This document shows, piece by piece, positions 1-5,668 of a DNA stretch of 11,703 bases. Position 1 is the stretch's first letter, and each line of letters opens with the position of its first letter. Origin of the DNA: Promethearchaeota archaeon (GTDB lineage Archaea; Asgardarchaeota; Lokiarchaeia; Sigyniarchaeales; SOKP01); assembly GCA_048940645.1 (NCBI GenBank), contig JBHLOI010000086.1, forward strand, positions 1-11,703. Direction: 5' to 3'. The notes below the pieces were generated by a model. It ran no database searches and was not told the origin of the DNA. It saw only the letters and a list, made by a program, of their open reading frames with translations. Both the position numbers and the translations under genes were made by a program.

Positions 1-642
1 TTCTTGATAAATTTCAGCAAGTTTAGAAAGATAATAAGAATCATTTGTTTGTAAGTAATGAGAAATATAACCACCTAACCCATTTGGATTTTTTACCCAT
101 TCTAAAAACATTTCTACTTCTGCTTTTAACGTAGGGTCAATAGTAGGAATTTTTGATGGATAAGCATATGTATTATATTGTTCTGAAGAAGTTTCACTAA
201 TAGTTTTTGTTTTAGTTTCTTTAGAAATATCTATGTCCGTTTTAATAAATTCAGATTTTGAGCCTTTTTTTAACATAGCTGCAGCTCTAACAACAGCAGG
301 ATACGCTAAATGCTCCCACCCTTTTGCTTTAGCTTTAATATGAGCAATCATATAATTTTCACCATCAGGGGTAGTAGCTCCAATAAGTTGCCCCTTTTTA
401 TGACGATTGGTTGCTATAAAACGCTCTGGCTCCATTTGGACAATAGAATAACGGATGGAGTTTACAGTAACAGATTGTGCAGAACCACTAGCCCAACTGG
501 ATAATAAATTACGTATATCACTTTTAATGTTCCAATTTTTTGTTGAATATAGCAATTTTCCATTCTTACTAATTATCGCTACTGATTCAGCATCTTTATA
601 GTGTTTTTGTAAATTATTAACAACAGTTTTAAAATTTACCAT
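1..642 (-). CDS. Profilin-like domain protein with a C-terminal helical extension (3' end runs off the window)
   Basis: Not in the ORF track; translated by hand. ATG at 642, then 214 codons with no stop down to base 1: MVNFKTVVNNLQKHYKDAESVAIISKNGKLLYSTKNWNIKSDIRNLLSSWASGSAQSVTVNSIRYSIVQMEPERFIATNRHKKGQLIGATTPDGENYMIAHIKAKAKGWEHLAYPAVVRAAAMLKKG, then a K/T/S/E-rich linker, then IDPTLKAEVEMFLEWVKNPNGLGGYISHYLQTNDSYYLSKLAEIYQE. The segments AII..NG.LLYST.NW.I, I.Y.IV....ER.IATN and KG.LI match the Asgard profilin pattern as I recall it. Confidence 0.8.
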   Translation of the reverse strand, partial: MVNFKTVVNNLQKHYKDAESVAIISKNGKLLYSTKNWNIKSDIRNLLSSWASGSAQSVTVNSIRYSIVQMEPERFIATNRHKKGQLIGATTPDGENYMIAHIKAKAKGWEHLAYPAVVRAAAMLKKGSKSEFIKTDIDISKETKTKTISETSSEQYNTYAYPSKIPTIDPTLKAEVEMFLEWVKNPNGLGGYISHYLQTNDSYYLSKLAEIYQE

Positions 643-671
643 AAAATTCACTTTTTTTTTTAATTATAATT

Positions 672-2027
672 TTATTTACTCATATCTATCCAAGTATCCA
701 CTTTATCTAATAATTCAAGTTTTTCTTTATAACTTAATCCTAGATTTGGTTTAGCACGTTGATAAATGTTAGCATATTTACTTAAATCCCATAAATAATT
801 AAGATGCAAAACCATGCTTTTAATGTAATTACGGGCAATTTCAAAAGCTTTACCTATCGAACGTAAATCGTAATCTTGTTTTATTATAGCTTTCAATACT
901 GATAGAATTTCAATTATATTGCTAGTAGGTATTACTGGAAGTGCTTTAATCTCTACAGTTGGACGCTCTATAAATCTGGGCTCAAACTTCTCTCTTCTTG
1001 GTTCTTCTTTCACAATGGTTTTTTCTTCCTTTTTAGGATGGTATAACCTCTCTCTTCCTATAAAAACAGAATCTTCCAATTCTTTTTTTGTTCTTCTTCT
1101 AAATTGATCAGGCCACCCCACAAATGAAGTTAGATTTTCCTCTGCAGAAATTAAAATTGATTCCTTCAACGTTTTTTCAGGAGGGGGTTTTACTTGTTGT
1201 GTAATTGAGTTTGGCATTTTTATTTTTAACCAAATATTTGCTTGATCTATTAATGAATATAAATATATTGGATCAAATTCTATCGTGGAGTAAATTTCAT
1301 TTAATTTTCTAATAGTTTCTCTAATTTCAAGAAGTTCTGAATTTGTAAAATGTTCAATTAAAAATTTGTATACGCGCAACGAAATTCCATTCAAACCTGC
1401 CACCGATTCTAAATATCTTAATTTTATTTCAGGTTTCATATCATCAGAAATAAGGATCATATTGAAGAAATCCCAATGAGCACTTAGAATCATATGTCCT
1501 GTCTTATCAAATTTAAATTTATTGGGATCGCGAATACTATCCATAAATTCCAAGATTATATCCTTATACGGTATAAATAAATTTCTCATTAAAGTCCCTT
1601 GGATAAATGTTTTTTTGTTTTCTGACTTAAATGAGAAATCGATTGGTGTTTTAAATATATTCTCTCCAACGATTACGTCTCGATCATTTTGGAGAGTAAT
1701 ATTTTTTGATTTTGCTAATTGATCATATACAAAATCAGGTAGTAATAACCCAGTTAAAGGTCTATTATCAGTAATATATCTCCCCGTTTGAACTTCAAAC
1801 TTCGTATAGTAATATCCTAAACCAAAAAGATAATATATTGTACCTCTAAAGGTTTTAACAGCGCCTTCAACACCACCAAAAAAGATTACTAGATCTTGAG
1901 AAATATTTAGCACATCATGATTAGCATATCGACCTAAAGTCGGATATCCAAGTAATTTTCCCCAACTTGGAATTACTAAAAAAATATTATTATTTATCAA
2001 ACCTTTTTTTAATGGAACTTTGGGCAT
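672..2027 (-). CDS. Hypothetical protein, 451 aa (globular N-terminal region, charged/Pro-rich linker, small helical C-terminal domain)
   Basis: Long ORF with an ATG start. Only 29 nt separate it from the co-oriented profilin-like gene. No catalytic motif recognised. Confidence refers to it being coding. Confidence 0.85.
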   Translation of the reverse strand: MPKVPLKKGLINNNIFLVIPSWGKLLGYPTLGRYANHDVLNISQDLVIFFGGVEGAVKTFRGTIYYLFGLGYYYTKFEVQTGRYITDNRPLTGLLLPDFVYDQLAKSKNITLQNDRDVIVGENIFKTPIDFSFKSENKKTFIQGTLMRNLFIPYKDIILEFMDSIRDPNKFKFDKTGHMILSAHWDFFNMILISDDMKPEIKLRYLESVAGLNGISLRVYKFLIEHFTNSELLEIRETIRKLNEIYSTIEFDPIYLYSLIDQANIWLKIKMPNSITQQVKPPPEKTLKESILISAEENLTSFVGWPDQFRRRTKKELEDSVFIGRERLYHPKKEEKTIVKEEPRREKFEPRFIERPTVEIKALPVIPTSNIIEILSVLKAIIKQDYDLRSIGKAFEIARNYIKSMVLHLNYLWDLSKYANIYQRAKPNLGLSYKEKLELLDKVDTWIDMSK

Positions 2028-3860: not shown

Positions 3861-4709
3861 ATGATTAAATTGTCACATATGCATGTTAATAACAAATTCT
3901 ACGAATTTGGCAAATATATTCGAATTGTAGCAATTGCGACGATATTAAGTATTATTCCATTTATATCTTTTGCTGGTATGGTTTTAACATTTATTTTTGT
4001 CATTATCGCATCAGTTCATTTGCTTGCTATAAATAGACAATTAAAAGATGTCACTTTGGGTGAATTTCGTTCAAAATGGTTAAAAGGTGTTATCATTAGG
4101 ATAATTGGAATGTTTATTATCAATGTATGTTTCGCTATTGTTCTTACAATGATAAGGAGAAGAGGTATAATGGGTGTAATTGAATTAATTACTACTGGTT
4201 GGTCATATCCTTATCCTAATCCAGCATTAGCCCTATTAATTGGGGTTGGTGTAACATTTTTTATAGGTTTTATACTTGTTATAGTAGGTTCATCTAAAGA
4301 AATGAGTGCTTGGAGACTTTTTTACAATTTTCTCAAGGAAAATGAGACTTTGTTTCCAAAAATGATCTCTGCAAGCACTATGGAAGGAGCTGAGAAATGC
4401 CGTACTGGAGCTTTAATGTTTACTTTAAGCTTTTTGATTATTACACCCATCATTGGTTATATTTTTCAAGCTATTGGATATTTCAAGATAGCTTCACTTA
4501 TCAAATTAGGAGAGCCTTATCCAGATTTAGAACCGGTACTACCTATATCTGTGCCAATTTCAAAACCAAAGCTTATACCAAAACCAGAACCAGAATCTAT
4601 ATCAATAGCATCTTCAGAGGATATAATTAATTTCTGTTCTCTTTGTGGAGAAAAAGTACCTCCTAATGCTAAATTTTGTGGATCTTGTGGTTCTTCATTG
4701 ATAAATTAA
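3861..4709 (+). CDS. Multi-pass membrane protein with C-terminal zinc ribbon (DUF973/DUF996-like), paralog 1
   Basis: Several hydrophobic segments, Pro-rich linker (PYPDLEPVLPISVPISKPKLIPKPEP), terminal FCSLCG-x8-FCGSCG double CxxC ribbon. The DUF family assignment is tentative. Confidence 0.85.
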   Translation: MIKLSHMHVNNKFYEFGKYIRIVAIATILSIIPFISFAGMVLTFIFVIIASVHLLAINRQLKDVTLGEFRSKWLKGVIIRIIGMFIINVCFAIVLTMIRRRGIMGVIELITTGWSYPYPNPALALLIGVGVTFFIGFILVIVGSSKEMSAWRLFYNFLKENETLFPKMISASTMEGAEKCRTGALMFTLSFLIITPIIGYIFQAIGYFKIASLIKLGEPYPDLEPVLPISVPISKPKLIPKPEPESISIASSEDIINFCSLCGEKVPPNAKFCGSCGSSLIN

Positions 4710-4861: not shown

Positions 4862-5668
4862 ATGTCAAATTATAATTTAGAAATGGGATGGATTAGCTTT
4901 GGAAAATATTTTCGGATTATAGCTATTTTTTGGATTTTTATTCTGATTCCATATTTTGCATTTTTAGTTGTAAGTATTCAGTTTATCTTTATAGTTATAG
5001 CTCTAAGCGAAATTAAAAATATAAATCGACAATTATCCAACTTAAATCTTGGGAGATTTTTTTCAAAGTGTTTGACGGGAAATACTATCAAAGTAATTGG
5101 ACTCATAGTGGTCAATGTAGGTGGTATAATCATAATTGGAAGATTTTTATCTGGACAATTTAATATTATCTTCTTTTATTACGGATTATTCTCTTTTAAT
5201 TTTCTTTGGATGTACCCTATTATAACAGCAATAGTTGTTGTCGGTTTTATATTTACAATTATTGGGTGTGGTATTGAAAAGGGTGCCTGGGAGAATTTAA
5301 ATATTTTTCTAAATCAAAATAATAAAATGTTTCCCGTTAGGACAGCTATAGATACAATAGAAGGGACAAATAAATTAAGTAGGGCAGCTTTATTATGGGC
5401 ACTTGGTTTTTTAATTGTTCCCATAATAATTGGATGGATCTTCTATATTATTGGTTATTTTAGGTTGGCAAAATTTAGTATTTGGCCTTCAACAATGCAA
5501 TTACCACCAACTATTGCTCCAGAATCAAAGCCAGCGTCTACTTCTGTATCTGAACCTATAAATGTTATAATTTATTGCCCACATTGTGGGTCAGAACTCA
5601 ATGAAGAAGGTAGATATTGTGGGATTTGTGGTTCACCTCTTCATGAAAATTCTAATCTAGTTCAATAA
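4862..5668 (+). CDS. Multi-pass membrane protein with C-terminal zinc ribbon (DUF973/DUF996-like), paralog 2
   Basis: Colinear with the upstream gene (FGKY.RI.AI, INRQL...LG.F.SK, AW, FP, IIG.IF..IGYF..A). Pro/Ser linker and terminal YCPHCG-x8-YCGICG. Confidence 0.85.
   Translation: MSNYNLEMGWISFGKYFRIIAIFWIFILIPYFAFLVVSIQFIFIVIALSEIKNINRQLSNLNLGRFFSKCLTGNTIKVIGLIVVNVGGIIIIGRFLSGQFNIIFFYYGLFSFNFLWMYPIITAIVVVGFIFTIIGCGIEKGAWENLNIFLNQNNKMFPVRTAIDTIEGTNKLSRAALLWALGFLIVPIIIGWIFYIIGYFRLAKFSIWPSTMQLPPTIAPESKPASTSVSEPINVIIYCPHCGSELNEEGRYCGICGSPLHENSNLVQ

Follow-up and report, generated by a model that had tools for sequence, protein, structure and literature searches.

The genome fragment considered here raised the question of whether an open frame that runs off its first base encodes a true profilin with an additional domain, and what such a domain could do. 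The fragment (hereafter, the window) is the whole stretch of DNA that was analyzed, 11,703 bases long, and forms the beginning of contig C39 of a Loki-type Asgard archaeal genome of 3.83 Mb (126 contigs, 29.8% G+C). The frame lies on the minus strand and extends over 214 codons from an ATG at 642–640 to base 1 of the window, with an in-frame GTG at 651. Alignment indicated that most homologues begin at a methionine matching position 642. The chance of 214 stop-free codons at 30% G+C was estimated by us at approximately 2e-8. The first-pass annotation of this DNA had pointed out a frame of at least 214 codons that was missing from the ORF track. This was confirmed: the frame appears only when open-ended frames are listed, and the track omitted it because it runs off the window.

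The contig could be extended to a stop codon, as had been proposed. The last 77 bases of contig C107 exactly match positions 1–77 of the window, an overlap of the kind that assemblers leave at a graph break. Continued into C107, the frame adds seven further codons (LYRIFFS) and then reaches TAA, followed by a T-rich stretch; the protein is therefore 221 aa long. The orthologue P0003 is 93% identical, likewise contains 221 aa and ends in LYRIFFP. The genes on its 17-kb contig are ordered as follows: GNAT, zinc-ribbon membrane protein, PAN ATPase, a 451-aa gene, the tailed profilin and a convergent Arf/RagA-like GTPase. Joining C39 to C107 gives exactly this order across the join. A total of 322 full-length homologues (211–236 aa) were found, and mean column identity in the family alignment was 65%. 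The gene is real, and complete once the two contigs are joined. The features of the locus are listed below, with the evidence in brackets.

1..642, minus strand: coding sequence of the predicted two-domain profilin, residues 1–214 of 221 (open frame, 77-base overlap, homologues, synteny).
L002:1477-1500 on contig C107, minus strand: last seven codons and TAA stop (in-frame continuation).
244..642, minus strand: predicted profilin domain, residues 1–133 (PDB sequence matches, model, Foldseek, charge).
145..243, minus strand: flexible linker, residues 134–166 (alignment, pLDDT < 50).
1..144, minus strand: three-helix tail, residues 167–214 of 167–221 (alignments, models, profile search, phyletic pattern).
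643..671, minus strand: A/T-rich spacer of 29 nt between the stop of the 451-aa gene (TAA, 674–672) and the profilin ATG.
672..2027, minus strand: 451-aa gene (directly upstream on the same strand, recurrent neighbour).
L002:556-1371, plus strand: convergent Gtr1/RagA- and Arf-like GTPase on C107 beside the join (frame listed from TTG).

The N-terminal 125 or so residues had been described as profilin-like, and both the sequence and the predicted fold bore this out, with a domain that covers residues 1–133. A phmmer search matched the head directly to profilins only among the PDB sequences, namely 5ZZB (Loki profilin-2, 1e-9), 5YED/5YEE (Loki profilin-1, 1.7e-9), 7PBH (7.9e-9), 5ZZA_P (Odin profilin, 4.1e-7) and 6YRR (5.5e-3). 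Some of the matched Asgard structures are crystallised complexes with actin. Passages of PMC10933270 and PMC8410842 attribute the Loki profilin-1/-2 and Odin profilin structures (5YED, 5YEE, 5ZZB and 5ZZA) to Akil and Robinson (2018). Modeling with AlphaFold2 from 29 family members led to a pLDDT of about 90 over residues 1–125. The model has a helix at either end, seven strands and a short central helix, in the order H-E-E-H-E-E-E-E-E-H (H4-14, E18-25, E30-33, H40-52, E57-60, E63-70, E74-78, E85-90, E96-102, H109-122). In a Foldseek search, Asgard profilins came first (Odin profilin, TMt 0.89, rmsd 1.6 Å; Loki profilins, E 1e-10), followed by the profilins of Acanthamoeba, yeast, plants and human. 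Ranks 1–40 were all profilins, and the first other fold was an SRX domain at rank 41.

One source labels an orthologue of this protein as Roadblock/LC7/MglB, and roadblock, longin and profilin domains have a common core fold (PMC10933270). Read in this way, the head would be a roadblock- or longin-type regulator of small GTPases, which the tail would link to a tailed Ras-like GTPase or to the neighbouring RagA-like GTPase; the presence of the same tail on some Ras-family GTPases and the convergent RagA-like gene downstream would fit. The fold search, suggested earlier as the check on this point, returned the profilin topology instead. The best roadblock chain was found at Foldseek rank 49 (rmsd 6.9 Å, TMq 0.35), behind the forty profilins, and the direct PDB sequence matches include no other family. 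Roadblock/LC7/MglB domains have a five-stranded sheet and a long central helix, and the head model has seven strands and a short one. Seven strands with a three-strand motif are what distinguishes profilin from the five-stranded roadblock and longin domains (PMC10933270), and the head carries this mark. We regard a roadblock or longin identity as extremely improbable.

The Pfam Profilin model PF00235 gave no match to the head at E ≤ 0.1, and a Pfam search of the whole 221-aa protein returned only a chance match to dCache_1 (E 0.054). Of the six profilin domains in the genome, PF00235 leaves five undetected, among them that of the gene on contig C69 that resembles Loki profilin-1/2, and its silence on the head therefore counts for little. 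Its only near-match in the genome was the tailed paralogue on contig C43, with 22.8 bits against a cut-off of 25.

Like Loki profilin-1 and -2 and Odin profilin, the head has the profilin fold and topology, at 21–29% identity in structural alignments, and the NW, (K/R)Y..I.Q/E, ER, TN and G-H motifs are common to all of them. The HMMER alignment places six fewer residues than in Loki profilin-1/-2 after the second helix, which is consistent with the short loop noted there at first reading. The Loki and Odin profilins are single-domain chains of 121–136 residues, whereas the protein studied here adds a linker and a 55-aa tail. Sequence matches and the predicted fold together support the identification of the head as a genuine Asgard-type profilin.

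The head differs from the other profilin domains of its genome in charge. The first-pass annotation had called the domain noticeably basic, citing RHKKG, KAKAKG and MLKKG, and this holds as a conserved trait: residues 1–133 have a net charge of +11 and a pI of 10.0, and all 28 orthologous heads are basic (net +7 to +15, median +11). The other five profilin domains of the genome, that of the C43 tailed paralogue among them, have net charges of −3 to −6 and pI values of 4.7–5.0; the contrast thus extends to the acidic C69 gene, the one that resembles Loki profilin-1/2. The motifs RHKKG, KAKAKGW and MLKKGSKS are conserved in the family; in the C43 paralogue, neutral or acidic residues take their place. 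The window head is also four residues longer than that of this paralogue before the last helix (KAKGW.H.AYP). By alignment with eukaryotic profilins, RHKKG and KAKAKGW presumably lie near the actin/phosphoinositide face. Basic charge is a conserved family trait, unique to this head among the six profilin domains of the genome.

Since this charge is opposite to that of the other profilin domains of the genome, the function of the head may have changed: it could bind anionic lipids or nucleic acid instead of actin and would then not be an actin regulator. Besides the conserved and unique charge, the fusion of another profilin domain of the same genome to a TrmB DNA-binding domain speaks for this, as a case of the fold being reused in other settings. 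On the other side, the block (K/R)Y..I.Q...ER....TN...G is the part best conserved across the family, the acidic tailed paralogue and the Loki profilins, and we take it to correspond to the strands that face actin in eukaryotic profilin–actin structures. Moreover, the profilins of Loki, Odin and Heimdall LC2 interact with PIP2, which affects the regulation of actin polymerisation (PMC8410842), so that basic patches and actin binding can coexist. A head that has given up actin is considered quite unlikely, although less so than a roadblock domain.

The TrmB fusion is a 400-aa protein encoded on contig C57 (L006:595-1797, minus strand). Its profilin-like N-domain, 34% identical to the window head, is joined to a winged-helix DNA-binding domain of the TrmB type (PF01978, E 1.8e-11), and the protein has one more domain at its C-terminus. 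Immediately upstream of its gene on this strand is the best actin gene of the genome (L006:1858-2994, minus strand, 378 aa, PF00022 433 bits). This protein could be a sensor that couples the state of actin to transcription.

Between the head and the tail lies a linker rich in Ser, Thr, Lys and Glu, with pLDDT < 50 at residues 135–165. A low-complexity linker had been anticipated here; its presence stands, and the length of about 45 aa given for it does not, as it covers 33 aa (residues 134–166). Neither its sequence nor its length is conserved. Among the aligned orthologues it varies from 24 to 34 aa. Some relatives, such as P0143 and P0163, have far longer linkers rich in Lys, Pro or Ser, and their tails begin at residues 245 and 265.

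The tail (residues 167–221) was predicted to form three helices at approximately residues 170–184, 188–198 and 202–219 (pLDDT 72–88). The helical domain rich in Tyr and Trp described at first reading proved to be this conserved three-helix unit, with 10 aromatic residues out of 55. The tail consensus is IDPxLKAE.E.FL.WI.N..GL..YI.Y.LQ.ND....S.La.iY.eLy.iF., and the alignment contains 11 invariant columns. The module as a whole covers about 50–55 residues in three helices with the motif FL.WI...GL..(Y/W)I..(Y/F)L.Q(N/G)D ... (I)Y..h..(I/V)F. The window copy has this motif, and the tail profile scores 99 bits on it.

Searches for known relatives of the tail gave no reliable match. Foldseek of the tail model against the PDB found nothing at E ≤ 10. 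With VIA-align, the best Z among 48,161 chains was 4.9, which does not reach the noise level given for helical models, and no actin-binding module was prominent. The Atlas shape search led to unrelated enzymes at TM ≤ 0.52, and the Atlas feature search to nothing usable. When the tail profile was run against PDB sequences, the match to DC-SIGNR (3JQH, E 2.7e-10) was an artefact of a 13-residue match summed across seven neck repeats, and the remaining matches had E > 0.08. A weak match in this genome on contig C50 (E 0.017) belongs to a sugar-nucleotide epimerase/decarboxylase, the same kind of protein as a weak PDB match, and was rejected as spurious.

The distribution of the tail was surveyed in 301 genomes sampled across the phylum. 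The module occurred in all 68 genomes sampled from the window's family and in all 7 from a sister family in the same order; it was not found in 2 genomes of other families in the class or in about 225 genomes in the rest of the phylum. A search of 1.84 billion (1.84e9) cluster representatives with the tail profile returned 56 proteins only. The module is not restricted to profilins. It occurs near or at the C-terminus of Ras-family GTPases (P0133, P0139 and P0144), in P0146 between a Ras GTPase and a gelsolin repeat followed by the start of a profilin, in the LRR protein P0170, in the zinc-ribbon protein P0132 and in short free forms. Two tailed GTPases were found in the species genomes, together with a 728-aa profilin fusion that carries a degenerate module; tailed GTPases are rare, occurring in 2 of 76 module-carrying genomes. 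As an independent and portable module, the tail is thus restricted to a single order.

The 728-aa protein (L066:91-2277, minus strand) comprises a zinc ribbon, a profilin, the degenerate tail and a helical domain. The same helical domain ends a 429-aa gelsolin-like protein of the genome (C85:18564-19850), the two having in common the motif CSNLQ.W.EH.YD.R. Judged by their domain layouts, P0146, the L066 protein and the C85 gelsolin-like protein point to a shuffling of modules between actin regulators.

A typical genome carries the module three times: on a basic tailed profilin of about 220–230 aa, on an acidic one of about 205 aa, and as a free mini-protein of about 54 aa. The genome analyzed here has this typical set, on contigs C39, C43 and C53; in addition to the window protein, it includes the following.

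L003:1046-1654 on contig C43, plus strand: acidic tailed profilin of 202 aa (34% identical to the window protein over its whole length).
L025:1492-1653 on contig C53, minus strand: free mini-protein of 53 aa (match to the tail profile).

The gene for the acidic tailed profilin lies near a TFIIB-like gene.

The range of carriers bears on another possible role, in which the tail would be a module that binds the side of actin filaments, like the villin headpiece or, as has been proposed, domain X of Thor 1DGelX; profilin would in this way be tethered to filaments. Thor 1DGelX consists of a gelsolin domain and an uncharacterised helical "domain X" (PMC7444086). The arrangement matches, from an actin-binding head through a disordered linker to a small helical module at the C-terminus, and one tail-bearing protein also has a gelsolin repeat. 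However, Ras-like GTPases and an LRR protein carry the tail as well, it also exists in free form, and the head of 1DGelX is a gelsolin domain. The tail itself was compared with domain X via the gelsolin-domain genes of this genome only; its profile matched none of them, and for these genes an identity with domain X is not supported. Binding to filament sides is considered very unlikely.

The free mini-protein was found in 69 of the 81 genomes of the order and in 36 of the 38 good-quality ones. Only three of the carrier genomes have more than one copy, and within the family the protein is 60–94% identical. Co-folding of the tail with the mini-protein was performed with custom alignments; for the tail chain the 93%-identical orthologue was used, since the contig end truncates the copy in the window. 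The resulting ipSAE was 0.78 (0.78, 0.75 and 0.81 in the individual runs) against 0.05 for the best of three controls. Among solved complexes 58 of 80 attained that mark, and among mismatched pairs 2 of 110 did. At least 95% of contacts are common to the runs, and partner pLDDT was at least 88. The predicted interface involves all three helices of both chains, with about 95 contacts and 38 of 59 tail residues touching. These models, whose score expresses model confidence and not a measurement, support pairing of the tail with the mini-protein. Since the mini-protein is a homologue of the tail, the result may reflect a general tendency of the module to pair and not a specific partnership. The most economical reading of the models is that the module would be a pairing handle linking its carriers to each other or to the mini-protein.

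In a simpler explanation, the tail would be a plain homodimerisation domain. The profilin would then be bivalent and could join two actin monomers or two membrane contacts, and the mini-protein would be an unrelated user of the fold or a competitor. The predicted interface, being large and symmetric in kind, suits any pair of copies, and the tail on its own yields a monomer model of only moderate quality (pTM 0.49). Plain homodimerisation does not account well for a mini-protein that is kept as a single copy at the above level of identity across the family, which speaks for a role of its own in the same system. We consider this explanation unlikely, although it is the strongest of the competing accounts of the protein.

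The locus of the mini-protein was analyzed in 30 cases, all from one family. Its gene is located upstream of a DEAD/DEAH-box helicase in 30 of 30 loci, and in 26 of 30 it is divergent from a gene whose product has zinc fingers of the DnaJ type (CXXCXGXG); as all of the loci come from one family, shared ancestry may explain this linkage.

A comparison of coordinates places the 451-aa gene immediately upstream of the basic tailed profilin gene, and in the same orientation, in at least 18 species genomes from four genera, and its product falls to 46–47% identity among genomes that keep the adjacency. It is not a universal neighbour, since it was missing beside the profilin in six compared genomes and beside the orthologues in L016, L018 and L019. 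No relative of the protein was found in Pfam, PDB sequences or the Atlas. We consider it a candidate partner of the tailed profilin. The 29-nt spacer between the two genes holds a TATA-like TTATAATTAAA, which is weak evidence at 30% G+C, and the profilin may be either co-transcribed with the 451-aa gene or transcribed from its own promoter.

Other genes around the locus are described here in their own right. A longer paralogue class of the 451-aa protein, with frames of about 560–750 aa, occurs elsewhere in the genomes, and in this genome it is represented by C85:21944-23917, about 2 kb from a gelsolin-domain gene. The frame of the convergent GTPase on C107 lacks the P-loop region; its orthologue in L020 has 297 aa, so the true start is probably further upstream. 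In the window, positions 3861–4709 and 4862–5668 (plus strand) encode tandem paralogous membrane proteins of 282 and 268 aa, both of which end in a zinc ribbon (PF13240 for the first) behind a Pro-rich segment.

Taken together, the reading that we prefer, and hold to be probable, is that of a lineage-specific Asgard profilin paralogue built from a profilin head, a flexible tether and a terminal pairing module. The head would still bind actin monomers (Lokiactin), and its basic face may also favour an anionic surface, for instance acidic lipids. The tail would form an intertwined helical pair with another copy of the module, which could be the mini-protein, a second tailed profilin or a tailed Ras-like GTPase, and such pairing would allow the cell to position, double or switch the handling of actin monomers at specific sites. 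The product of the upstream 451-aa gene could take part as a further partner. The first-pass annotation had suggested that the extra module localises or regulates actin binding; its portability and the predicted pairing with the mini-protein lend support to the idea, and the role itself is one that the module could have.

A broader version of the preferred reading is put forward tentatively and, in our estimate, is rather unlikely. The module would form the basis of an order-specific tag-and-adaptor system in which the free mini-protein pairs with the same module on the two profilins and sometimes on Ras-like GTPases, a gelsolin-containing protein and LRR proteins. Such a system would couple small-GTPase signalling to the supply of actin monomers, with the basic head adding membrane targeting.

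Small helical modules for pairing or docking exist elsewhere, for example dimerisation/docking domains and dockerin-type tags. Like these, the tail is short, portable and terminal, its carriers are functionally connected, and it is predicted to pair with a homologue of itself; the analogy is one of function only. Among profilins, the closest parallels are 6YRR (a Heimdall profilin) and 7PBH (a Thor profilin by its entry title), in which a segment is also appended outside the core, in their case with an effect on function. The short disordered N-terminal extension of the Heimdall and Thor profilins modulates polyproline and PIP2 binding, and its deletion enhances both (PMC8410842). That extension is present in about 5% of Asgard archaea (PMC8410842), whereas the tail described here is predicted to be folded, is portable and C-terminal, and is universal in two families. 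In the papers covered by a full-text literature search, no profilin with a C-terminal extension is mentioned, and those of Loki and Odin are described without added domains; an earlier description in Akil and Robinson (2018) or in the Asgard profilin survey of Ponlachantra et al. (2023, BioEssays) is possible. The protein joins a true profilin to a portable three-helix module, a putative partner module for which no description was found.

The results add an undescribed small domain family to a group of proteins that is one of the few experimentally supported links between archaea and eukaryotes in the regulation of the cytoskeleton. The Asgard profilins studied so far are single-domain proteins, and for those of Loki and Odin a lack of binding to the VASP polyproline motif is reported (PMC8410842). 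The tailed profilin, universal in two families, basic and provided with a tail common to GTPases and a conserved mini-protein, would offer a concrete mechanism of recruitment to particular sites. The order sampled includes closed genomes of 4.3, 4.4 and 6.0 Mb, and if these belong to cultured strains, the idea would be directly testable. Should the tag-and-adaptor system prove true, it would be a prokaryotic counterpart, functional and not ancestral, of the recruitment of profilin and actin to signalling sites in eukaryotes.
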